Source: an uncultured Chloroflexia bacterium
GTDB taxonomy: Bacteria; Chloroflexota; Limnocylindria; Limnocylindrales; CSP1-4
Direction of reading: 5' to 3'
Assembly (NCBI GenBank): GCA_963813535.1
Contig: CAWEZH010000002.1
Span: 1,216,001 to 1,280,000, forward strand
DNA length: 64,000 nt
Shown: one piece after another, positions 3,365-55,163 of the stretch
Position numbering within the stretch: position 1 is the first letter of the stretch
Layout of the letters: every line of letters starts with the position of its first letter
The notes under the pieces: generated by a model
The model's database searches: none
What the model was told of the DNA's origin: nothing
The model's input: the letters and a program-made list of their open reading frames with translations, nothing else
Program-made: the position numbers and the translations under genes

Positions 3365-6124
3365 ATGAGGGAACTCCGGCCGGACATCCGTGGCCGTGCG
3401 GCCGAGCGCGCGCGCCTGGGCGAGCTTCTCGCCGGCGTTCGCGCCGGGCAGAGCGCCGCGGTCGTCGTCCGAGGAGAGGCGGGGATCGGCAAGACCGCGC
3501 TTCTTGAATACGCCGCGGATCGCGCCCGGGGTTGCCGTCTTATGCGCTCGACCGGGGTCGAATCAGAGATGGAGTTACCGTTCGCCGCGCTGCAGCACTT
3601 TTGCTCGCCGCTCCTGGCCGGGCTCGAGCGACTACCACCGCCACAGCGCGATGCTCTCGGGACGGCGTTCGGCCTGATATCGGGGCCGCCTCCCGACCGC
3701 CTTTTTGTCGGCCTTGCTGTCCTCGGGCTCCTGTCGAACGCCGCGGAGGTCCAGCCGCTCGTCTGCCTGGTGGACGACGCGCAGTGGCTCGATCATTCGT
3801 CGGCGCAGGCCCTGTCTTTCGTCGGGCGGAGGATCGACGCCGATTCCGTGCTGCTGGTGTTCGGGCAGCGTGACCATGACGGAACCGACGTTTTCGCCGG
3901 GCTTTCGGAGATCCGGCTCCGCGGACTCTCCGACGCTGATGCCCTCGAGGTGCTCGCGATGCGGGCGATCGGTCCGATCGATGAACGCGTCCGGAACCGG
4001 GTCATCCAGGAGGCCCGGGGCAATCCGCTGGCGCTTCTCGAGGCCTGGCATGCCGCGTCGGTCGGCGGCCTCGCTGGTGGATTTGGACTCCCGGTCGAGC
4101 CTCCCGGCGACGTCGAAGCAACCTACAGGCGGCGGGTGTCAGAACTGCCTGCGGAGACGCAGCAACTCCTCCTGCTCGCCGCCGCGGAACCGCTCGGTGA
4201 CCCCGCCCTGCTTTGGCGCGCGGCGACCGCTGCCGCCATCCCGGTGGAGGCGGCCTCGCCGGCACAGGGCGAGGGCCTCATCGACATTGGCGTGCGGGTC
4301 GCGTTCCGGCACCCCCTCCTCCGGTCCGCCATCTATCAGGCAGCACCACCGGGCGCGCGTCGGGATGCACATCGTCGGCTCGCGGAGGCGACAGACCCCG
4401 ACCTCGACCCGGACCGCCGCGCCTGGCACCGAGCGCTCGGGACAGTCGCTCTCGACGAGGAGGTGGCCGTCGAGCTCGAGCATTCGGCGGGGCGAGCGAG
4501 GGCCCGGGGAGGTTTCGCAGCCGCTGGCGCGTTCCTCGAGCGAGCCTCGGAGCTAACCCCGGACGGCGCGGACCGAGCTCGACGCACTCTTGCGGCCGCC
4601 CGGAGCAAGCACCAAGCGGGCGACCCGGAGGCGGCACTCCGACTCCTTGCGATCGCCCAGGCTGGCCCTCTCCTCGACTTGGAGCGGGCCAGGGCCGAGC
4701 TCCTCCGCGGCCAGATCATGTTTGCGGTGAACCGTGGGCGTGACGCCCCGCCGCTTTTGCTGAAGGCCGCGAAGCGATTGGAGCCGCTCGATCCTAACCT
4801 TGCTCGAGAAACCTACCTTGAAGCATTCGCAGCGGCGCTGTTTGCGGACCGTCTCGCGCATGAAGTGGGAGTACGTGAAGTCGCGGAAGCGATCCTCTCC
4901 GCGGACTGGACAGCTTCCTCGCAACGAGCGCCGCGCGCGTTCGACCATCTTCTCGACGGCATGGCCGTGCTGATGACGCGGGGATACGCCTCCGGCGCGC
5001 CCATGCTCAAGCGTGCCCTCGCTGCGTTCCGCGACGAGCCGATGGCGGATGAGGAAGCGTTGCGCTGGCTCTGGCTCGCGTGCCGAGTCGCACGGGCGAT
5101 GGGCGACGACGCGGCATGGGACGAGCTCACCGATCGCCACGTGCGGCTCGCCCGTGGCGCGGGTGCCCTCTCCGTGCTCCCGATCGCACTGACCGAAAGG
5201 TTCAGCGTCCAGCTCTTCCTTGGGGACCTGACCGCCGCCGCGGCGCTGATGGCAGAGGCGGAGGCGCTCGTCCATGCGACGGGCAGTCATCTTGCGCCGC
5301 AGGGCGCGATCTCACTGGCCGCCTGGCAGGGACGTGATGAAGAAGCGACCAGGCTCATGGCCGCAAGTCGTGATGCAGTCGAATACCGAGGCGAGGGCCT
5401 GTGGCTGACATCCACGGAGTGGACGACGGCGGTGCTGTACAACAGCCTCGGCCGGTACGAGGAGGCCCTGGCTGCCGCCGAGAAGGCCGCGGAGCATCCG
5501 CATGAGCTCGGCGTGTCGACGTGGGTGCCCACCGAGCTCATCGAGGCAGCTGCTCGGACGGGACAGATCGACCGCGCACTCGGCGCGCTCGAACGGCTCC
5601 ATGAGATCAGCGCGGCGAGCGGCACCGACTGGGCACTGGGAGTCGAGGCCCGCTCGCGAGCGCTTTTGTCCGAGGGAGCCGTGGCCGAGCGCCTCTATCT
5701 CGAGGCGATCGAGCGGCTTGGACGAACGAGAATTCGAGTGGCCCTCGCCCGCGCTCAGCTGCTGTATGGCGAGTGGCTCCGACGGGAGCAGCGTCGGCTG
5801 GAGGCGCGGGACCAGCTGCGAGCCGCACATCGTGCGTACTCAGCGATGGGGATGGAGGCTTTCGCGGAGCGTGCGCGGCGCGAGCTGATGGCGACAGGAG
5901 AGAAGGTTCGCAAGAGGAGTCTGGTCGCCGCCGAGGATTTCACCCCGCAGGAGGTCCAGATCGCGCGGCTCGCCAGCGACGGCCGAACCAACCCCGAAAT
6001 CGCAGCGCAGATGTTCCTCAGTCCGAGAACCGTCGAGTGGCATCTGCGCAAGGTGTTCAGCAAGCTCGACATCAGCTCGCGACGGGAACTTGCCGGGGCG
6101 CTCCAAAGCCGGGGGCGCGGATAG
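3365..6124 (+). CDS. LAL-type regulator (AAA ATPase plus C-terminal LuxR HTH)
   Basis: Walker A GEAGIGKT, Walker B LVDDAQWLD, GNPLALLE, FRHPL, and LuxR HTH TNPEIAAQMFLSPRTVEWHLRKVFSKL. Confidence 0.95.
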   Translation: MRELRPDIRGRAAERARLGELLAGVRAGQSAAVVVRGEAGIGKTALLEYAADRARGCRLMRSTGVESEMELPFAALQHFCSPLLAGLERLPPPQRDALGTAFGLISGPPPDRLFVGLAVLGLLSNAAEVQPLVCLVDDAQWLDHSSAQALSFVGRRIDADSVLLVFGQRDHDGTDVFAGLSEIRLRGLSDADALEVLAMRAIGPIDERVRNRVIQEARGNPLALLEAWHAASVGGLAGGFGLPVEPPGDVEATYRRRVSELPAETQQLLLLAAAEPLGDPALLWRAATAAAIPVEAASPAQGEGLIDIGVRVAFRHPLLRSAIYQAAPPGARRDAHRRLAEATDPDLDPDRRAWHRALGTVALDEEVAVELEHSAGRARARGGFAAAGAFLERASELTPDGADRARRTLAAARSKHQAGDPEAALRLLAIAQAGPLLDLERARAELLRGQIMFAVNRGRDAPPLLLKAAKRLEPLDPNLARETYLEAFAAALFADRLAHEVGVREVAEAILSADWTASSQRAPRAFDHLLDGMAVLMTRGYASGAPMLKRALAAFRDEPMADEEALRWLWLACRVARAMGDDAAWDELTDRHVRLARGAGALSVLPIALTERFSVQLFLGDLTAAAALMAEAEALVHATGSHLAPQGAISLAAWQGRDEEATRLMAASRDAVEYRGEGLWLTSTEWTTAVLYNSLGRYEEALAAAEKAAEHPHELGVSTWVPTELIEAAARTGQIDRALGALERLHEISAASGTDWALGVEARSRALLSEGAVAERLYLEAIERLGRTRIRVALARAQLLYGEWLRREQRRLEARDQLRAAHRAYSAMGMEAFAERARRELMATGEKVRKRSLVAAEDFTPQEVQIARLASDGRTNPEIAAQMFLSPRTVEWHLRKVFSKLDISSRRELAGALQSRGRG

Positions 6125-32946: not shown

Positions 32947-33779
32947 GGTGAGTGTCGGCCCTGCAGCTCGATGGCCGCATCGGAGAACGCCGGCCAGCGT
33001 TCGAGTGCCCATGGTCCGAACTCGCGGTCCGTCAGGCAGACGAGTGCCACGTCGAGGACGGGGTCGACCCAGATGAATGTCCCCGCCCCGCCGAAATGAC
33101 CGAAGGTCGCCGCTGAGTTTCGGTCGCCTGTCCAGTGGGGAACCTTGCTGTCACGGATCTCGAACCCGAGCCCCCAATCGAGCGGGTCGAACGGGCCGAC
33201 GCCCGGCAGGACGCCCTTCAGGCCCGGGAATGCGACCGCCTTCGCAGCACTCGACGTGCCGCGACCCACGAGCGTCGGCCGGAGCAGCTCCAGAGCGAGG
33301 ACAGCAGCATCGCCGATCGGTCCCTGCAGGCCCTGGGACGGTCGCTCGACGAGCTCCGTGGCGGCCATACCCAGCGGAGCCAGCACGCGGTCCGCCAGGG
33401 CGACCGCGAATGGGCGGCGGTCGCGCTCCTCGAGGAGCGCCCCGAGCGCGTCGAACCCCGCGTTGGAATAGATCCGACGGGTCCCTGGCCGGGCGAGGAT
33501 CGTCGTGCCATCGAACGGGAGACCTGAGGCATGCGCGAGCAGGTGCCGTACGGTCGATCCCGGCGGTCCGGCGGGCTCGTCGAGATCGATGGTCCCGTCA
33601 TCGACGGCCGTCAGGAGCGCCAACGCCGTCGCGAGCTTCGTGACGGATGCCCAGCGAAAGCCTCGATCGGCGTCGCCGTGCTGGGCGAGCACACCGCTCG
33701 GGCCAACGAGAGCAGCGGCAGCATGCTCGGCGTCCCAATGGTCGATCGCGGCCAGGGCAGCATCGAGGTGGGTCGTCAC
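32943..33779 (-). CDS. Serine hydrolase (beta-lactamase-like)
   Basis: SVTK, LLAHASG, YSN, FGHFG. Confidence 0.92.
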   Translation of the reverse strand: MTTHLDAALAAIDHWDAEHAAAALVGPSGVLAQHGDADRGFRWASVTKLATALALLTAVDDGTIDLDEPAGPPGSTVRHLLAHASGLPFDGTTILARPGTRRIYSNAGFDALGALLEERDRRPFAVALADRVLAPLGMAATELVERPSQGLQGPIGDAAVLALELLRPTLVGRGTSSAAKAVAFPGLKGVLPGVGPFDPLDWGLGFEIRDSKVPHWTGDRNSAATFGHFGGAGTFIWVDPVLDVALVCLTDREFGPWALERWPAFSDAAIELQGRHSP

Positions 33780-33839
33780 GGCCCCGGGATGCTAGCCCAC
33801 CGTCATGGGATCGACGCACGCCGGGAATAGACTTCGGGC

Positions 33840-34517
33840 ATGCAGTTCTTCGCTTCCAAGCCCAAGTCCATCCCATCCCCCGACAAGGCGCTGCCCGGCC
33901 GGCCCGATCCGATCATGGAGCCCGGGGTCCACACGATCCTCGGGACGCCCCTTGCCGGACCCTGGCCCGAGGGCACCAAGACCGCCATCTTCGGTCTCGG
34001 CTGCTTCTGGGGTGACGAGAAGGACTTCTGGCAGCTCCCCGGCGTGGTCACCACGGCGGTGGGCTATGCCGGCGGTTCGACGCCGAACCCGACCTACCAG
34101 GAGACATGCACCGGTCAGACCGGCCACGCCGAGGTCGTCCTGGTCGCGTACGACCCGCAGCGGATCTCCTACGAACAGCTTCTCAAGACGTTCTGGGAGC
34201 ATCACGACCCGACGCAGGGCATGCGCCAGGGGAACGATGTCGGCACCCAGTACCGATCGATCATCCTCGTCGCGGACGACGAGCAGCGGGCAGCCGCCGA
34301 GGCATCCAAGGCGATGTACCAGGAGCAGCTGTCGAAGGCGGGCTACGGGGAGATCAAGACCGAGATCGTCGACGCCGCGTCGAACCCGTTCTACTACGCC
34401 GAGGACTACCACCAGCAGTACCTCGACAAGAACCCTCGCGGCTATTGCCCCAACCACTCGACCGGCGTCAAGCTGCCGGCCGACTTCGTCGTCACCCCGC
34501 TGCAGTACGTGGACTGA
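33840..34517 (+). CDS. msrA: Peptide-methionine (S)-S-oxide reductase
   Basis: [49 protein letters not shown]. Confidence 0.97.
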
Positions 34518-34660
34518 CTCGCTGCGGGTCGGCCGCGCATGGCTAGCCCACTGGGAGGCGTCCTCAGACGATGAACGCCCTGACCGCCGTTGGCCCTGCT
34601 CCAGTAGGTCCTTGGCGGTCTTGTCGCGTTGTGGGCGGAACTGAATCCCTATTGTGTGCG

Positions 34661-34699
34661 AAATCATATATTGACAAATCATATACCGCCTCCCATCGT
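34661..34699 (+). promoter_or_regulatory. Sigma70 promoter with a direct-repeat operator
   Basis: AAATCATATA (34661), TTGACA (34671), AAATCATATA (34676), and CATCGT 17 nt after the -35. Confidence 0.7.
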
Positions 34700-34737
34700 G
34701 TCCTCGACAGGGGTCGCATCAGCACGGAGGCACGGAC

Positions 34738-35013
34738 ATGCAGGACATCCTCATCCGGATCGAGACCGACGACTTCGGGGCCTGGGCGGAGCAGCACTAC
34801 CTCCACGCCGTCAACCGAGCAACCTACGGAATCGAGGACGGACCGGCCTATCGGGACATGGACAATCCCAACGCGGCCATGTTCCACATCAGGACCGAGG
34901 ACGTCGATCGGGCGATGGGATGGTTCCAGTCCGATACCTTCAGGGCCGCGACCAAGCTGGCGAAGGTCACGGGCAGGTCCTTCTACGACGCCCAGCCTCG
35001 CAGCCGAACCTGA
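34738..35013 (+). CDS. Small hypothetical protein (dimeric alpha/beta-barrel/cyclase-like)
   Basis: GGAGG RBS; DDFGAW...YRDMDNPN pattern. Confidence 0.75.
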   Translation: MQDILIRIETDDFGAWAEQHYLHAVNRATYGIEDGPAYRDMDNPNAAMFHIRTEDVDRAMGWFQSDTFRAATKLAKVTGRSFYDAQPRSRT

Positions 35014-35043
35014 CGCAACCCGATCGCGGAAAGGGAGCGACTC

Positions 35044-35523
35044 CTGGTTACACGCCGCGTCGGAGACGACGAACGCCTTTCGGCCTGGCGGGATCTGCAG
35101 TGGGCGACGAGTCTGATCATGAGCCGCTTCGCCCACGACCTCGCCGAAGAGGGCCTGACGCTCGAGGAGTTTGACGTCGTGGTCCACTTGGCGTGGGCTC
35201 GAGACGGCGTGCTGCCGTTGCGTGCACTGGTCGCCTCCATCGTCACGGGCTACCAGTTGAGTCGAAGTGGGCTCACCCGCCTGCTCGACCGGATGGAACG
35301 AGACGGCCTCGTCGAACGAAGCCTGAGTCGTGATGATCGGCGACAGTTCGACGTCGCGATCACCGGCCACGGCCGAGAGGTCTTCGACCGGGTTTGGCCC
35401 GGCCATCTGCAAGGGATCCAGAGCTCCTTCTCGGAGCCACTGACCGACCACGACGTGACCGTCTTGAAGCGGGTCCTTGCCAAGCTGATCCGCGCCAACG
35501 AGGGGCCGAACGGCCGGCGATAG
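35044..35523 (+). CDS. MarR family regulator (probable CTG start)
   Basis: LSRSGLTRLLDRMERDGLVER...DRR...ITGHG. The in-frame first helix (RLSAWRDL) lies upstream of ATG 35119, with CTG 6 nt after AAGGGAG. Confidence 0.88.
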   Translation: MVTRRVGDDERLSAWRDLQWATSLIMSRFAHDLAEEGLTLEEFDVVVHLAWARDGVLPLRALVASIVTGYQLSRSGLTRLLDRMERDGLVERSLSRDDRRQFDVAITGHGREVFDRVWPGHLQGIQSSFSEPLTDHDVTVLKRVLAKLIRANEGPNGRR

Positions 35524-35536
35524 GCTGACCTGTTTG

Positions 35537-35624
35537 AGAATCCGCGGGGCTATTGCCCGAACCACGCTACCGGCGTGCAGCTCCCGGATGCCTTCGTCGT
35601 CACGCCGCTTCAGTACTGGACTGA
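35537..35624 (+). repeat. msrA 3'-end copy 1
   Basis: Translates as [26 protein letters not shown], versus native 34429-34517 [28 protein letters not shown]. Confidence 0.95.
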
Positions 35625-35648
35625 CAGTAGGCGCAACTATCCGGTGCT

Positions 35649-35732
35649 CGAACGGCTACTGCCCCGAACCGCGCAACCGGAATGATCCTTCCATCCAACT
35701 TCAAGGTCTCAGGGCTTCAATACCTGCAATGA
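35649..35732 (+). repeat. msrA 3'-end copy 2 (most diverged)
   Basis: NGYCP(+1)NRATGMILPSNFKVSGLQYLQ*. Confidence 0.85.
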
Positions 35733-35860
35733 CCTTAGAGGAGTTCCTGGGAACCGGCGGCGGGGCTCGTCCATGGTCGAAGTCCAAGCCCGGGCGGACT
35801 CCAAGCTGCGCGTTAAACTCCTGCGAAACTCAAGTGTTCATCTAGAGGGAGCCCGCGGGC

Positions 35861-36697
35861 GTGGATGCGGATCGTCATGCCGAGGAGAGCGGTTCCGATC
35901 CCGACGCGAACCCGAACGAGGCCATGTGGCGGGCGATCCTCGACGGCACGGATCCCGTATATGCGCGAACTCGGGGCCGGCTGAAGCACCTCCCGGGAAC
36001 GCCGCGTTGCAAGATGTGTGCCGCGCCTTTCGGGGGCCCTGCCGGCATCCTGATGCGGTGGCGGGGTCGAGCGCCGTGGCCGAAGAACCCCGACTACTGC
36101 GGTGCCTGCTTCCAGCTGCTTGATCGATACCACGGCGGCGCGGAGATTGAATTGTCCTTCCTGTTCGCCGACATCCGCGGCTCGACGACCTTGGCGGAGG
36201 GGATCTCGCCGACGGCGTTTCGAACGCTTCTCGACCGCTTCTACGACGTCGCCGCGCGCGTCCTCGTCGCCCATGACGGCATCGTCGACAAGTTCGTCGG
36301 CGACGAGGTCGTTGGAATCTTCATTCCGGCGCTCGCCCACGGCGAGCATCCCGCGCAGGCAATCGCTGCTGGGCGGGCGCTGCTCGACGCGACGGGCCAC
36401 GGGGAACCCGATGGGCCGTGGCTGCCAGTTGGAGTCGGCGTGGCTACCGGAACCGCGTTCGTCGGGTCGGTCGGAGAGACGCACACGGCGGCGATGACGG
36501 CCCTCGGCGACATCGTGAACGTCACCGCGCGGCTTGCATCCGCCGCCGGGCCTGGCGAAATCCTCGTCAACGACAGGGCGGCAGAACGGGCCGGCCTTGA
36601 GACACGATCACTCGAGCTGCGCCGGCTCGGACTCAAGGGAAAGACGCAGCTGACTACCGTCTACGTCGTTCATGCCGGACGCGGATCAACCCCCTGA
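35861..36697 (+). CDS. Class III adenylate/guanylate cyclase with an N-terminal CxxC...CxxC domain
   Basis: CKMC, CGAC; FADIRGST, DKFVGD, TALGDIVNVTARL. Confidence 0.93.
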   Translation: MDADRHAEESGSDPDANPNEAMWRAILDGTDPVYARTRGRLKHLPGTPRCKMCAAPFGGPAGILMRWRGRAPWPKNPDYCGACFQLLDRYHGGAEIELSFLFADIRGSTTLAEGISPTAFRTLLDRFYDVAARVLVAHDGIVDKFVGDEVVGIFIPALAHGEHPAQAIAAGRALLDATGHGEPDGPWLPVGVGVATGTAFVGSVGETHTAAMTALGDIVNVTARLASAAGPGEILVNDRAAERAGLETRSLELRRLGLKGKTQLTTVYVVHAGRGSTP

Positions 36698-36722
36698 TGC
36701 CGACAGTAGCTTGAGCGGTTTC

Positions 36723-36810
36723 AGAACCCCGCGGCTATTGCCCCAACCACTCGACCGGCGTGAAGCTGCCGGATGACTTCAAGGCGACCCCGCTTCAATA
36801 CGTGGAATAG
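36723..36810 (+). repeat. msrA 3'-end copy 3
   Basis: NP(-1)[26 protein letters not shown]. Confidence 0.95.
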
Positions 36811-36839
36811 GCCTCGTCACCCAGACGCTCCGACATGAA

Positions 36840-36866
36840 GAGACCCGCCCACGATGGGCGGGTCTC
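36840..36866. terminator. Hairpin terminator after the last msrA-end copy
   Basis: GAGACCCGCCCA-CGA-TGGGCGGGTCTC perfect 12-bp stem. Confidence 0.8.
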
Positions 36867-36922
36867 GCCTTATCTTCGGGCTCGGTCAGGTCCCTTGAGA
36901 GTCGTTCGACTCGTCTGCGCGA

Positions 36923-37801
36923 TCACGCCATCGCGCCGTCGGCGACCTGGCGACCGATCGACGGCTCCGACCCATACCCCAGCCGGCCACGGGTGGCGAC
37001 GAGGACCGCCGCCGCGAGGACCGCGAAGCCCGCGTAGACGACCACCGGGTCGACCGACGGCGCGAGCACCGGGATGAATGCCGAGCCCGTGGCGACGCCA
37101 AGGCCCGCGTGGTACAGCCCGACGATCGGCACGCTACGACCCGAGCGGTTGTAGATCCAGGTCAGCACCAGCCGCACCGAGATCGGCAGGACGAACAGCG
37201 CGACGAGGTAGAACGGCACCTGCTCGGCGGTCACACGGCCATCGGTGACGCCGCCCGCGATGAACACCAGCGGGACGTGGATGAGGGCCTGCAGCCAGGT
37301 CGTCACGACGCTGGCGGCGATCGGGCCCAAACGCGGCTGGAGCCGCTCGAGCACGAACCCCGTCCACGCGGTCTCTTCCCACCAGTTGACGAGCGCGAAG
37401 GCGACGACAGCGCCGAGCACGATCGTCACGATGACGGCCGGGTTCGAGGCGAGGGCCGAGATCGGCGAGAGCCCTGCGACAGCGACCGCGGCCACCAGAC
37501 CGGCAGCCGGGAGGAGCAGGACGGCGACCGCATACCACGCCGGGTTGACTCGGAAATGGAAGACGCGGCGACGAAAGGCACGGACGCCTTCACGGCCTTC
37601 GGCGAGGGCGGTCGCGATGAACGCGGCGCCGGCGAGCGAGATGGCCGATAGGAGGATGAATGGCGCGATGCCCGGCAGCTCGAGATCGATGATCCCGATG
37701 CCGTTCGTCGATGCCAGTGGCACCGCGAAGATGGCCGCGCTCGCCGCGTAGGCGATGGTCAGGAAGACGGCGAGTGGATGCCGTCGTGCGATCGATCGCA
37801 T
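36923..37801 (-). CDS. CPBP family intramembrane metalloprotease
   Basis: WEETAWTG, ALIHVP, YNRSGRSV...YHA. Confidence 0.88.
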   Translation of the reverse strand: MRSIARRHPLAVFLTIAYAASAAIFAVPLASTNGIGIIDLELPGIAPFILLSAISLAGAAFIATALAEGREGVRAFRRRVFHFRVNPAWYAVAVLLLPAAGLVAAVAVAGLSPISALASNPAVIVTIVLGAVVAFALVNWWEETAWTGFVLERLQPRLGPIAASVVTTWLQALIHVPLVFIAGGVTDGRVTAEQVPFYLVALFVLPISVRLVLTWIYNRSGRSVPIVGLYHAGLGVATGSAFIPVLAPSVDPVVVYAGFAVLAAAVLVATRGRLGYGSEPSIGRQVADGAMA

Positions 37802-37944
37802 CTGGTGTGTCCCCTTTCGTGGGCTTCTGTGGAGCTGCGGATCAAGCGATCCGTGTGCTTCCCAGACTCGCCTCGCGGGGACGCCACGTCGTCGGTCCAC
37901 GGGCCCGAACGGACACGCGACGTTCGGCGCGACGGGACCGTCCG

Positions 37945-37964
37945 AGCGATACCCGGGTATCGCT
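37945..37964. promoter_or_regulatory. Perfect 20-bp palindrome between the divergent CPBP and TCS genes (probable response-regulator site)
   Basis: AGCGATACCCGGGTATCGCT. Confidence 0.65.
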
Positions 37965-38046
37965 GCGATCTCATCCCACAGGCGGACGCCGAACTCCTGC
38001 CCGAGCGCTACCGTTCGGCACTGGAACCAGCCCTACCGAGGTGTCG

Positions 38047-39240
38047 ATGCTCGACCGACAACCGTCACCGATCGATCGGATACGCCGTGCGCACACCGAG
38101 TCGCCGCGACCCATCGATGTGGCGGTCGCACTCGGCCTCGCCGCGCTGTCCTTTGCCTCGTTCGTCGCTGGCGCGACGACGATCGGCCCTCGCGATGGCA
38201 TCACGGTCGTGCTGCTGCTCCTCGAGAGCCTTCCGCTCATGGTCCGTCGGCGCTATCCCCTCGAGGTGTTCCTGGTCGTGGTCGCCGCCAGCATCGCCCA
38301 CATCGCGATCCTGCCGTCGGATCAGGAACTGCAGTCCGGGCTGGGCATCCTCGTCGCGATGTACACGATCGGAGAGCGGCTCGACCGTCAGGTATCGATC
38401 CCGCTAGCCGTCCTGGCGGGGACGATGATCGCCGTGCTCCTGATCGGCCGCGCCGGTATCCCGGAGGGGCTCCAGAGCCTGATCCAGACCGAGCTCGTCC
38501 TCGGCGTCGCCTGGCTGGTCGGTGACACCTCGCGGATCCGCCACCTGTACACGAAGGCACTCGAGGAACGGGCTCGAATGCTCGATCGCGAACGCGAGGA
38601 GCGCACCAGACGCGCAGTCCTCGAGGAACGTGAGCGCATCGCGCGCGAGCTCCACGACGTCGTCGCCCACCACGTCAGCGTCATGGTCATCCAGGCCGGC
38701 GGCGCGTCGAGCGCCATCGACAAGCGACCCGACCAGGCACGGACCGCGTTGACCGCCATCGCAACGGCCGGGCGTCAGGCGCTGACCGACATGCGCCGGC
38801 TCGTCATGATGCCGGGGACAGGCGAGGCCGTCGAACCCATGCCGGGTCTGGGCCAGCTCGAAATCCTCGTCGACGAGGTCCGCTCGGCGGGGCTGCCGGT
38901 CGAAGTCACCATCCAGGGCGACCCGCGAGTGCTCGACCCCGGGCTCGACCTCTCTGCCTACCGGATCATCCAGGAGGGCCTGACGAACTCGCTCAAGCAC
39001 GCCGCGGGCGGCACGGCCAGGGCGACCGTCAACTACGCCACGGACGCCATCGAGATCACCGTCGAGGATGAGCGTGGCAGCGACAGCACGCCGCACCTGG
39101 AGCCCGACCATGAAGGCCGAGGGCTGCTCGGGATGCGCGAACGTGTCGCGATGTTCCGGGGCACCTTGGATGCCCGTCCGACCCCCACCGGCTATCGCAT
39201 CTTCGCGCGCCTCCCCGCCGCGGACGGAGGTACGCCGTGA
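38047..39240 (+). CDS. Membrane sensor histidine kinase (HisKA_3)
   Basis: ERERIARELHDVVAH, YRIIQEGLTNSLKHA, GLLGMRER. Confidence 0.95.
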   Translation: MLDRQPSPIDRIRRAHTESPRPIDVAVALGLAALSFASFVAGATTIGPRDGITVVLLLLESLPLMVRRRYPLEVFLVVVAASIAHIAILPSDQELQSGLGILVAMYTIGERLDRQVSIPLAVLAGTMIAVLLIGRAGIPEGLQSLIQTELVLGVAWLVGDTSRIRHLYTKALEERARMLDREREERTRRAVLEERERIARELHDVVAHHVSVMVIQAGGASSAIDKRPDQARTALTAIATAGRQALTDMRRLVMMPGTGEAVEPMPGLGQLEILVDEVRSAGLPVEVTIQGDPRVLDPGLDLSAYRIIQEGLTNSLKHAAGGTARATVNYATDAIEITVEDERGSDSTPHLEPDHEGRGLLGMRERVAMFRGTLDARPTPTGYRIFARLPAADGGTP

Positions 39241-39908
39241 CCATCCGCGTCCTCCTCGTCGACGATCAAGCACTCGTCAGGACGGGCTTCCGGATGATCC
39301 TCGAGGACGAAGCCGACATCGACGTGGTCGGCGAAGCCGCGAACGGGCGCGAGGCCGTCGAGGCGAGCGCGCGCCTTCGCCCGGACGTCATCGTCATGGA
39401 TATCCGCATGCCGGTCATGGATGGCGTCGAGGCCACCCGCAGCTTAGCCGGCGACGAAGCGACGTCCGGGGCCCGCGTCCTCATCCTGACGACGTTCGAC
39501 GCCGACGAGCTCGTCGTCGAGGCATTGCGGGCCGGCGCCAGCGGTTTCCTCCTGAAGGACGTGACACCGGAGGAATTCGTTCGCGCGATCCGCGTCGTCG
39601 CGACTGGCGAGGCGCTACTCGCCCCATCCGTGACGCGCCGCCTCATCGCCCGCTTCGCGCGCCTTCCGGTCCCTGCCGACGAGGTCCACGCGGACGCCTT
39701 GCGCGAGCTGACCGATCGCGAGAGGGAGGTGCTCAAGCTCGTGGCGCTCGGCCTCTCGAACCGGGAGATCGCCGGGCACCTCACGCTGGCCGAACCCACC
39801 GTGAAGACGCACGTCTCGCACCTTCTGCTCAAGCTCGACCTGCGAGATCGGGCGCAGCTGGTGGCATTGGCCTACGAGACCGGCGTCGTCCGTCCCGGCT
39901 CGGGCTAG
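39237..39908 (+). CDS. NarL family response regulator
   Basis: VDDQALVRTG, MDIRMP, LTTF, LTDREREVL...TVKTHV. Confidence 0.96.
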   Translation: MTIRVLLVDDQALVRTGFRMILEDEADIDVVGEAANGREAVEASARLRPDVIVMDIRMPVMDGVEATRSLAGDEATSGARVLILTTFDADELVVEALRAGASGFLLKDVTPEEFVRAIRVVATGEALLAPSVTRRLIARFARLPVPADEVHADALRELTDREREVLKLVALGLSNREIAGHLTLAEPTVKTHVSHLLLKLDLRDRAQLVALAYETGVVRPGSG

Positions 39909-53825: not shown

Positions 53826-55163
53826 GTGAAGTACGATGCAACAACCGTGGCACTGCGCGTCCTCCGGCTAGTCGCCGTCGCATCGATCTTCGCCTTTGTG
53901 CTCACCGCGCGCACGGTCATGCCGACCTACGCAAACACGGATGACCCGGCCGCCGACCCGTTGCCCGCAGACGTCGATGTGTCTTCGACCGATCTCGGTC
54001 AGGAGCCACCGCCGCCCGATCCAACGCCGGTCGAGGAGGAGCCGCCTCCCGAAGACCCCGTCGAGCCGGCCCCGACGGACCCGCCACCCACCGACACGCC
54101 AGGGACTGTCTTGGTGCCGACGGATCCTCCGGTCGCGGCGGAGCCGCCACCCGCCGACATGGTCGAGCCGGCCCCGACCGACCCGCCACTCCCCGACGCG
54201 GTCGAGGCTGTCGAGCCGCCGCCGGTCGCGGCGGAGCCGCCACCCGCCGACATGGTCGAGCCGGCCCCGACCGACCCGCCACCCACCGACACGCCAGGGA
54301 CTGACTTGCTGCCGACCGATCCTCCGGTCGCGGCGGAGCCGCCTCCCGCAGACGCCGTCGAGCCGGCCCTGGCGGACCCGGCGGAATCGGACCCGACCCG
54401 ATCGCCAGTCCCCGACCCGGCCACCGCCATCCCCGATCCGGCTGACTCCGACCCGTCGGCGGCCGAGCCGGCTCCGCGGGTCCCGTCGACTCATCGGTCG
54501 CCCGAGCCTATCCCGCCCGTCGCCGACGATCCGGCGCAAACAGCGACGGCGCCCGTCACTGCCAACGCGAGCACCCTGGCGAAAGCGACGGACGGCGGGT
54601 CAGATGTACCAGCCCACACGATGACCCTCGATTCGGCGGTCGCCGCTGGGGCCGGGCTCGCGGTCGGATTTGTGGTCACGAACCAAGCCCCAAGCAGCGT
54701 GGCGGTCGCCATCGAGTTCGGACGCGCGGGCGGTGGGTGGGCCGGCGCGATCGTGTTCAACGTCTGGCTTCGCCGGCAGATGCGCATGCGTCGCATCAGC
54801 CAGCGTCAGCTCGCGGCCCTCGCCGGCATCGACCACTCCACGATCTCGCGGCTGCTCCGGGAGGATCGACGGCCGTCGCTCACGACGGCGACGAAGCTCG
54901 CCGGGGCCCTCAAGAAGGTGCCAGGCGAGCAAGCTGAGCCCGAAACGGCCGACTACTTCGAACGCAACCCGGAAGAAACGGTCTTCCCGGCGAGAAGGGT
55001 GGAGTTGGCCCTCAGGGCGGACGAGCTGCTCGACGAGGAACAGGTCCGGCGTCTGATGAACATCTATCTTGACGCCCGTCGGAGGCACCAGGCATTGGGG
55101 ACGAGCCCGTCCGCGCCCACCCGCGCCGGGCCAGCGCGCGCCGCCCCCGACCCGCGCCGCTGA
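53826..55163 (+). CDS. Signal/TM segment plus Pro-rich repeats plus C-terminal XRE HTH
   Basis: LRLVAVASIFAFVL, PTDPP repeats, SQRQLAALAGIDHSTISRLL...PSLTTA. Start uncertain. Confidence 0.75.
   Translation: MKYDATTVALRVLRLVAVASIFAFVLTARTVMPTYANTDDPAADPLPADVDVSSTDLGQEPPPPDPTPVEEEPPPEDPVEPAPTDPPPTDTPGTVLVPTDPPVAAEPPPADMVEPAPTDPPLPDAVEAVEPPPVAAEPPPADMVEPAPTDPPPTDTPGTDLLPTDPPVAAEPPPADAVEPALADPAESDPTRSPVPDPATAIPDPADSDPSAAEPAPRVPSTHRSPEPIPPVADDPAQTATAPVTANASTLAKATDGGSDVPAHTMTLDSAVAAGAGLAVGFVVTNQAPSSVAVAIEFGRAGGGWAGAIVFNVWLRRQMRMRRISQRQLAALAGIDHSTISRLLREDRRPSLTTATKLAGALKKVPGEQAEPETADYFERNPEETVFPARRVELALRADELLDEEQVRRLMNIYLDARRRHQALGTSPSAPTRAGPARAAPDPRR
54060..54370 (+). repeat. Intragenic tandem repeats (~93-102 nt units) encoding VEPAPTDPP...PVAAEPPPAD
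   Basis: GTCGAGCCGGCCC recurs at about 54060, 54162, 54255 and 54357. Confidence 0.85.

Follow-up and report, generated by a model that had tools for sequence, protein, structure and literature searches.

How did a gene for peptide methionine sulfoxide reductase A (msrA) come to be followed by three further copies of its own 3' end, with small genes set between them? The question is raised by the 64,000-nt stretch of DNA analyzed here (the window), which comes from an uncultured Chloroflexia bacterium (GTDB lineage Chloroflexota; Limnocylindria; Limnocylindrales; CSP1-4; GenBank assembly GCA_963813535.1, contig CAWEZH010000002.1, positions 1,216,001 to 1,280,000 of the forward strand). Its source genome is designated G000, and other G and L numbers are handles for genomes and loci, respectively. 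The explanation that we favor, and consider rather probable as a whole, is that site-specific accretion at msrA has left behind integrase-less cassettes resembling cis-mobilizable elements (CIMEs). Its core, accretion at an attachment (att) site with replacement of the gene's tail and horizontal exchange of the units, we hold to be highly likely; the supply of an integrase in trans is a more tentative part, for which we would put the chances a little short of even.

Tail copies and cargo behind an intact msrA

The msrA product matched PF01625 over profile positions 1–152 of 153 (E 1.2e-62) and contains the catalytic GCFWG cysteine motif that marks it as an MsrA; same-genus orthologues of the gene are 72–96% identical. 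The features of the locus are collected in Table 1. When the native msrA end was searched by BLAST against the 3.28-Mb genome, tail copy 1 (35537–35624) aligned at 83% over 89 nt (E 1.6e-19) and copy 3 (36723–36810) at 87% over 85 nt (E 1.2e-22), and the best match beyond these two had an E value of 0.011. A weak match to the repeat core at C1:207614 was rejected as lying inside an unrelated gene. Copy 2 (35649–35732) was the most diverged and was matched at the protein level only (52% over 21 residues, E 7.5e-4); it is frameshifted by one additional base directly 3' of the codons for Gly-Tyr-Cys-Pro, and copy 1 lacks one base near its end. The three copies are direct repeats of the last ~30 codons on the msrA strand, so that sequence inspection, BLAST and the protein match bore out what a preliminary description, made from the letters of the window, had reported. 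Direct 3'-end repeats therefore flank every unit and the target gene is intact, which is the arrangement of a CIME or accretion array.

The preliminary description had placed the start of the copies at an AGAAY junction. AGAAY does open copies 1 and 3 and GTTT[G/C] precedes both, but the alignment with msrA already begins 5' of that junction, at a CAGTA[C/G] motif to which GACAGTAG belongs and whose counterpart in the gene is the Gln-Tyr codons. The spacing given for GACAGTAG, exactly 23 nt before the GGC-TAY-TGC codons for Gly-Tyr-Cys (GYC), was confirmed by direct reading in copies 2 (35623–35630 / 35654) and 3 (36702–36709 / 36733). Across 66 non-native copies, conservation was at background before a GGCAGTA[C/G] motif and again after the stop codon, leaving a conserved element of about 115 nt in between. 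Most copies carry six extra bases and a Glu codon in this leader where native msrA has Lys, a form never seen in native msrA, and the GGCAGTA of the leader is an inverted repeat of the TACTGCC in the GYC codons.

The hairpin 3' of copy 3 is the sole intergenic terminator-like hairpin within 33700–37000, as expected from the claim that only the last copy is followed by a terminator; the scan of this interval gave a second match inside the cyclase gene, a total of 2 against a shuffle mean of 1.8. Tails with a terminator like that of copy 3 were found as the first tail of L084, the fourth of L078 and of L081, and the fifth of L082. Because this pairing recurs in other genera, copy 3 is probably the original msrA end, pushed downstream by insertions, and the hairpin presumably the original msrA terminator. 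The tail now in frame with msrA would represent the left attachment site.

Between the repeats lie the cargos that had been described and one nearly empty slot, which measures 24 nt and separates copies 1 and 2. Unit 1 encodes a small protein and a MarR-family regulator behind a promoter region that contains the sole 24-mer with at least 19 A/T in the 3.28-Mb genome; its repeat is a direct repeat, not a dyad, and the TTGACA region is kept in all eight copies of the unit. In the eight-copy alignment, the first ~70 nt of the spacer 3' of msrA are common to the spacer before the same cargo in G236. The cyclase of unit 3 has two CxxC pairs N-terminal to its catalytic domain, and in G014 a 50% identical homologue adjoins msrA on the opposite strand.

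Table 1. Coordinates of the msrA array in the window and of the integrase region of the phage that carries an msrA fragment (window positions unless a locus handle is given)
Feature	Position	Strand	Remarks
msrA (peptide methionine sulfoxide reductase A)	33840..34517	+	intact open reading frame, 225 aa, PF01625
Exchangeable tail, currently in msrA frame	34413..34517	+	CAGCAGTAC (Gln-Gln-Tyr) codons through GYC cysteine codons to stop
Spacer 3' of msrA stop	34518..34636	+	CAGTAG leader-like remnant at 34602–34607
Unit 1 cargo	34637..35536	+	promoter/operator, 91-aa protein, MarR-family regulator
Unit 1 promoter/operator	34661–34685	+	perfect 10-nt direct repeat flanking TTGAC
91-aa protein	34738–35013	+	no Pfam or NCBIfam family
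MarR-family protein	35119–35523	+	PF12802, E 2.4e-7
Leader 1 and tail copy 1	35516..35624	+	leader TAG is the MarR stop codon
Leader 2 and tail copy 2	35625..35732	+	CAGTAG immediately 3' of copy 1 stop
Class III nucleotide cyclase (unit 3 cargo)	35861..36697	+	PF00211, E 2.1e-11
Leader 3 (GACAGTAG) and tail copy 3	36702..36810	+	reading frame intact
Terminator hairpin	36840..36866	+	12-bp stem; −34.3 kcal/mol, folding z −3.9
Phage integrase region	L096 5366–6886		IMG/VR record, handle G431

Exchange of the working tail and sharing of units

We compared 31 native tails with the 23 of 73 non-native copies in which a 25-codon frame of the common type is unbroken. The ratio of nonsynonymous to synonymous differences (pN/pS) was 0.20 among native tails, 0.23 among copies, and 0.22 between native tails and the copies of their own genomes, the values for copies being biased downward by the restriction to intact frames; pS between native tails and own-genome copies was 0.34, as high as between genomes. 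Since pN/pS is low and pS equals the between-genome level, we interpret the copies as foreign alleles that diverged under selection as working msrA ends in different hosts, and not as recent local duplicates, in line with the earlier remark that they differ as functional alleles would.

A change of ancestry between the msrA body and its tail was seen in close relatives. For the three most closely related genome pairs, identity was 93.8–94.2% over the final 400 nt of the body and 79–85% over the tail, and the 100 nt 3' of the stop codon were unrelated. Between the window and its closest relative, mismatches went from 21/330 in the body to 14/96 in the tail (Fisher p 0.012), and in a second close pair from 17/330 to 15/96 (Fisher p 0.0013). 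The tails of the third close pair are of different types, and a fourth pair gave 22/330 versus 11/96 (Fisher p 0.095). Relative to the point where the CAGCAGTAC codons end, the close pairs first differed at −1, +11, and +14. The msrA genes of G293 and G085 are identical for 70 nt up to the CAGCAGTAC region, but the working tail of G293 with the following 800 nt matches the third tail of G085 with its following 800 nt (96.7%), and not the working tail of G085. A unit encoding a YecM protein likewise follows the working tail at a distance of 75–81 nt in three loci, and in four others it comes after the second or the fifth tail; its common sequence opens at the GYC codons and closes in a leader that stays with YecM. 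Because the tail of a given unit of tail and cargo is at work in some genomes and displaced in others, these comparisons show that incoming units replace the working msrA tail, GYC cysteine included. This is what the preliminary description had proposed, and the break after Gln-Gln-Tyr, the G293/G085 pair and the YecM units all agree with it. From these patterns it follows that a unit consists of tail, spacer, cargo, and leader, and that the tail of the newest unit serves msrA.

Working tails were also seen to differ in their cysteines. The working tail of L052 (G018; 3574–3648) is of a two-Cys type and those of other same-genus genomes have one Cys; that of L117 (G642; 3771–3848) lacks the GYC Cys, which both displaced copies retain. 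One versus two C-terminal cysteines in the working tail within a single genus could alter the recycling of MsrA.

The cargo, too, is common to different genomes. For the unit 1 block, which runs from the promoter to the end of marR and the leader, the window and G020 show 90.7% identity, compared with 67% for the upstream beta-lactamase-like gene, 68% for the downstream sugar kinase, and 83% for msrA. The block was found in eight of 401 sampled genomes of the family, belonging to six genera, at 80–92% nucleotide identity. It occupies the interval from msrA to the next tail in three genomes, lies 3' of the second tail in one and 0.8 kb past msrA in another, and its leader stays joined to marR in G020 and G207. 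An all-against-all comparison of loci revealed many other units common to different genomes and genera at 88–97%. These comparisons show that the cargo units are shared horizontally.

Spread of the arrays

To survey the family, the last 31 residues of MsrA were used as the query against the 401 sampled genomes, which include the unpublished G121 and G231 with one match each. At least one tail match was present in 284 genomes, and 56 had 2–7 matches as counted from the match table. Extra tails occurred at 7 of 20 same-genus msrA loci (19 genomes and the window), with intervening and following genes that vary by genome. Copy number and cargo thus both vary among relatives, a check that the preliminary description had proposed for its model. 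It had also named the lack of cargo variation or of a shared breakpoint, neutral divergence, and misassembly as signs against that model, and none of these was encountered.

We mapped 42 loci, 28 of which were arrays of 2–9 tails; 18 loci had been picked for their several tails, so the array statistics do not come from a random sample. All 115 mapped tails lay on the msrA strand. The 73 intervals of the 28 arrays had a median length of 787 nt, and most (46) contained one called gene, with none in 15 and two to five in 12. Cassette genes (n = 79) were oriented with msrA in 52 cases and against it in 27. The cargo included YecM, DUF2652, SnoaL, ABM monooxygenase, VOC, esterases, a TMEM175-like channel, RibD_C, adenosine deaminase, cyclases, and a protein combining DUF1269 with a helix-hairpin-helix (HhH). 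This last protein, of 388 aa, was seen near arrays on the opposite strand in nine copies at seven loci (L043, L078, L082, L084, and L086 among them), at or 3' of the array end, and often had beside it a 146–228-aa protein of no known family.

Among 331 genomes of the phylum, including the unpublished G593 with one match, multi-tail genomes were found only in the window's family and in one sister-family genome, though the 31-residue query is less sensitive for distant tails. The sister-family genome, from the same class, has msrA followed by two tails ~1 kb apart. A strict leader pattern matched only three GTDB records, all Chloroflexia or Chloroflexota metagenome-assembled genomes (MAGs); a looser regular expression failed to match G000, as the leaders there deviate. 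Exact short contigs from three soil sequencing runs, which may include the source sample, span the junctions of marR with copy 1, of copy 2, and of copy 3 with the terminator.

msrA as an integrase target in a phage and in Actinomycetota

Viral contigs were scanned for the GYC core, and one record matched, a phage genome of 124.5 kb that is complete and has terminal repeats. In it, the gene for a 444-aa PF00589 tyrosine integrase and an isolated msrA fragment (residues 184–215) are convergent and an msrA body is lacking, which makes this a classical attP that supplies a replacement gene end. Homologues of this integrase (70–77%) were present in MAGs of Streptosporangiaceae and other Actinomycetota. 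In two Actinomycetota MAGs the homologue is convergent with and adjoins a full msrA, and in two further ones an integrase fragment lies beside msrA. One Actinomycetota MAG has msrA tail repeats on both sides of a ~31-kb element (G742:C47:275112–306147) whose integrase is 73% identical. Because a tyrosine integrase lies next to an msrA tail fragment in the phage and the Actinomycetota prophages, the msrA 3' end is, judged from these gene arrangements, a true integrase target at which elements decay. By this evidence msrA joins the list of protein-gene attachment sites; we found no report naming it as one in the literature searched, most subscription journals lying outside the search.

Search for a recombinase and for mobility

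In all 15 array-bearing genomes analyzed, there was no PF00589 match near the array, the matches being located on different contigs or 350 kb or more from it, and most of these genomes had only an Xer-like gene pair, 40–50 kb apart. The two PF00589 matches of G000 are such a XerC/XerD-like pair, 430–470 kb from the array. A tblastn search of 44 loci with the two Xer-like proteins and the phage integrase gave nothing at E ≤ 0.01. Profile searches of G000 found no match to PF00239, PF01797, or PF01609 and one broken match to PF00665, ~965 kb from the array, and the genome is very poor in mobile-element genes. The reported lack of an integrase or transposase at the array therefore stands. A recombinase beside msrA in relatives, which the preliminary description had suggested looking for, was absent from the family arrays searched and was found only in Actinomycetota. 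By the profile search of the 15 genomes, the tblastn search of the 44 loci, and the cargo annotation, the units are without integration and transfer genes, as CIMEs are.

Several candidates were tried and rejected. A large-serine-recombinase element does not fit repeats of ~110 nt and a restored target gene, and PF00239 (serine recombinase) was missing in G000, G176, and G210. The recurrent neighbors of the arrays were considered as recombinases of a new kind (the DUF1269 and HhH protein and proteins of 228, 351, 252, and 302 aa), but Pfam and NCBIfam give no recombinase among them, all NCBIfam matches being far under the cut-offs. Carriage by cultured phages or plasmids was likewise discarded: the only phage match was an unannotated fecal record, and the plasmid matches were native msrA genes on large replicons.

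A model of accretion at msrA and the evidence against it

In the explanation that we favor, the msrA 3' end would be the attachment site for site-specific integrative elements, each of which would bring its own version of the msrA end, beginning at about the Gln-Gln-Tyr codons and including the stop. Recombination within a window of ~25 nt, from the CAGTAC motif to the GYC codons, would join the host msrA body to the tail of the element, leaving msrA whole and the former tail shifted downstream, and repeated events would stack units of tail, short spacer, one or two cargo genes, and leader. The window would then hold three units, one made up of the working tail, the small protein, and MarR, one of copy 1 without cargo, and one of copy 2 and the cyclase, followed by the original copy 3 and its terminator. 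These integrase-less CIME-like cassettes would probably have been moved by a tyrosine-type integrase acting in trans from a transient element, and later reshuffling and gene conversion between tails would have followed.

Accretion with tail replacement explains why the repeats are direct and all in one orientation, why msrA is intact, why a displaced tail is found with its terminator, why the copies are foreign alleles, and why body and tail are discordant. The phage and prophages provide a direct precedent for it. Site-specific movement in trans is favored by the sharp and shared repeat ends, the special leader, and the change points that fall within one ~25-nt window. We infer the site-specific step in this lineage, the supply in trans, and the exact crossover point. 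The serial site-specific integration put forward in the preliminary description is upheld insofar as msrA is a recurrent hotspot and integrases target this site in another phylum, but no such recombinase was found in the family.

A number of results weigh against the favored explanation, besides the downward bias of pN/pS mentioned above. The unit 1 cargo was also present in two genomes of one genus, away from msrA in one case and on a contig too short to tell in the other. The tails before unit 1 in the window and in G236 are mosaic, being alike in their ends and spacer and different in the middle, which requires extra homologous exchange, and the six-base and Glu form of the leader means that a simple crossover at CAGTAC does not suffice. 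The left boundary varies over ~25 nt between cases. The msrA-targeting phage integrase gave matches of 29–32% in five of the 401 family genomes, none of them near tails; no autonomous integrase element for the same att site was found in these genomes, which are incomplete MAGs; and the array loci contained no integrase pseudogene that would mark decayed elements. Viral contigs scanned for the common tail-type end and leader gave 0 matches. Excision or circle junctions were not seen in the parts covered by contigs of four soil runs, among which a joint of 34430 to 35548 across unit 1, with nine other letters between, was a foreign msrA aligning to both tails and was discarded. Site-specific movement in trans is thus weakened by the lack of a candidate enzyme or decayed integrase, by the mosaic tails, and by the lack of a junction read.

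Alternative explanations

The chief competing account, rather unlikely in our estimation, is that a few founding integrations made the tail repeats and that RecA-type recombination and gene conversion alone then shuffled units flanked by 80–95% identical tails. It accommodates a genome very poor in mobile-element genes with no recombinase near any array, as well as mosaic tails, a unit 1 whose linkage to the flanking tails varies, and boundaries that vary over ~25 nt, and the tails offer identity runs of 20–30 nt. However, the left crossover could then fall anywhere in the msrA body, yet in the three closest pairs and the six YecM units the change begins within one short window past CAGCAGTAC; the repeat ends are sharp and shared, and the leader form is absent from native msrA. 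RecA-dependent single crossovers on ~90 nt at 80–90% identity are also inefficient, and the origin of the first tail copy with cargo is left unexplained. Part of the shuffling is surely due to homologous recombination between tails, which may be the main process. Duplication is a still poorer candidate: that the msrA end was merely duplicated in tandem and decayed, or that the repeats are an artefact of assembly, would suit repeats that are direct, close, and partly broken (the frameshift of copy 2 and the base loss of copy 1), but we regard it as extremely improbable, for the own-genome pS of 0.34 is at the between-genome level, these units recur in other genera, the pattern recurs in dozens of independent assemblies, many of them of few contigs, and exact short contigs of other runs span the junctions.

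The msrA end might instead be the primary site of a class-specific gene-cassette system whose circles are shuffled by a host recombinase, either the Xer-like pair or an unrecognized enzyme, which we consider unlikely. If it were true, the cassette site of an integron-like platform would have been formed from the coding end of a working stress gene, and each capture would alter the C-terminal recycling cysteines of MsrA, one-Cys and two-Cys tails being exchanged. A dedicated cassette platform, on which an unlinked host recombinase such as a XerC/XerD-like pair acts on the msrA end as primary site and the ~110-nt repeats as cassette sites, in function an analogue of integrons or dif modules, seems to us more doubtful again. 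Such a platform would be in keeping with an Xer-like pair as the only tyrosine recombinases of G000 and most array genomes, with small units that mostly hold one gene, with cargo of the kind found in integron cassettes (VOC, ABM, SnoaL, esterase, YecM), with up to nine tails per array, and with a leader that inversely repeats part of the GYC codons. A folded attC-like site was nevertheless rejected, since on neither strand do the ~125-nt elements outdo shuffled sequences in folding; single-strand folding of the 66 copies gave mean z of −0.54 and −0.70 for the two strands, the same as for 42 native tails. GGCAGTA pairs with TACTGCC in the consensus fold, but covariation of leader and GYC codons, assessed by eye, is not systematic. 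A dif-like core had no match in the genome, and the element holds no AT-rich 24-mer; msrA lies ~130 kb from the sole clear GC-skew extreme of the contig, where skew is weak. The 27 reversed cassette genes and the promoter of unit 1 also speak against it. Accretion at msrA is still the explanation that we prefer.

Neighboring genes and other repeats

Between the array and a pfkB-type kinase, the window encodes a CPBP-type membrane protease, a histidine kinase, and a LuxR-type response regulator (36923–39908). This block is present in the window and G021 and missing at the corresponding place in G024, so the region beyond the array is also variable. Tandem direct repeats of ~100–170 nt with 85–86% identity at 54011–54380 (G000:C2:1270011–1270380) are probably a repeated protein segment. 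Outside the window, three GC-rich copies of a ~60–70-nt element, 85–93% identical, lie at G000:C2:1121531, 1123528, and 1128861, that is, 2 and 5.3 kb apart, and are not tRNA by ARAGORN. Other local repeats of the genome were considered as gene-tail arrays and dismissed as paralogous domains or an unrelated 65-nt element, no tRNA being involved.

Relation to known systems

The closest parallels concern islands that stack at one site. In Streptococcus thermophilus, islands related to ICESt1 and ICESt3 at the 3' end of fda include CIMEs that keep their att repeats and accrete in tandem (reviewed in PMC5704250). The msrA arrays are alike in that the 3' end of a protein-coding gene is targeted, att repeats are kept without integration genes, and arrivals stack (PMC5704250). 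They differ in their units of ~0.5–1.3 kb with one or two genes and up to nine tails, in having no integrase partner or remnants found in the lineage, and in their spread through a whole Chloroflexota family. In the tycheposon islands of Prochlorococcus, the stacked elements have partial tRNA copies between them (10.1101/2020.12.28.424599). The resemblance lies in serial integration at one site, partial target copies in between, older elements being moved inward by newcomers, and small adaptive cargo, and the difference in that tycheposons carry a tyrosine recombinase, mostly target tRNA genes, and leave integrase fragments in their islands (10.1101/2020.12.28.424599). The target here is msrA, and the msrA units have neither a recombinase nor a fragment of one. 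The Actinomycetota phage and prophages share with the arrays the msrA target and the logic of insertion, with a replacement end in the attP and tail repeats bracketing the integrated element; in that phylum integrase remnants lie at the site. They are large (31 kb and 124.5 kb), bear integrases, and belong to another phylum, their msrA homology starts ~33 nt further upstream without the six-base leader insertion, and the phage integrase has no close relative in the window's family.

Integrons and clusters of attC sites lacking integrases (CALINs) consist of small, mostly single-gene cassettes with a ~100-nt repeat, and CALINs have no recombinase gene. The arrays of msrA tails are similar in their single-gene cassettes, ~100-nt repeat, and missing recombinase gene. 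Unlike in integrons, the repeat derives from the coding end of the target and has no hairpin signal, intI was absent from the 15 genomes, gene orientation is mixed, unit 1 has its own TTGACA promoter, and the first repeat lies inside a working gene. The term integron-like, used in the preliminary description, is therefore an analogy only, as neither intI, nor a folded attC, nor promoterless one-way cassettes were found. In Xer-dependent modules, such as integrative mobile elements exploiting Xer (IMEX) and the dif modules of Acinetobacter plasmids, cargo without a recombinase of its own sits between repeated recombination sites, which are dif-like, ~28 bp long, and bound by XerC/XerD. The msrA units are likewise recombinase-free cargo bounded by repeated sites, but no dif-like sequence was recognized in the element, although the dif of this lineage may differ, and the locus is not at a skew extreme.

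Implications

Integration into gene ends and tandem accretion are textbook processes. What goes beyond them here is a regular and widespread product, made of small units with no nearby recombinase, in a genome almost without mobile-element genes. A conserved repair enzyme is the carrier of exchangeable ends. If the units move as such, they would be natural enzyme-less cassettes outside integrons and would allow a cheap trade in single accessory genes among abundant uncultured soil bacteria, and the tail repeat offers an easy marker for flexible gene cargo in metagenomes of this group.

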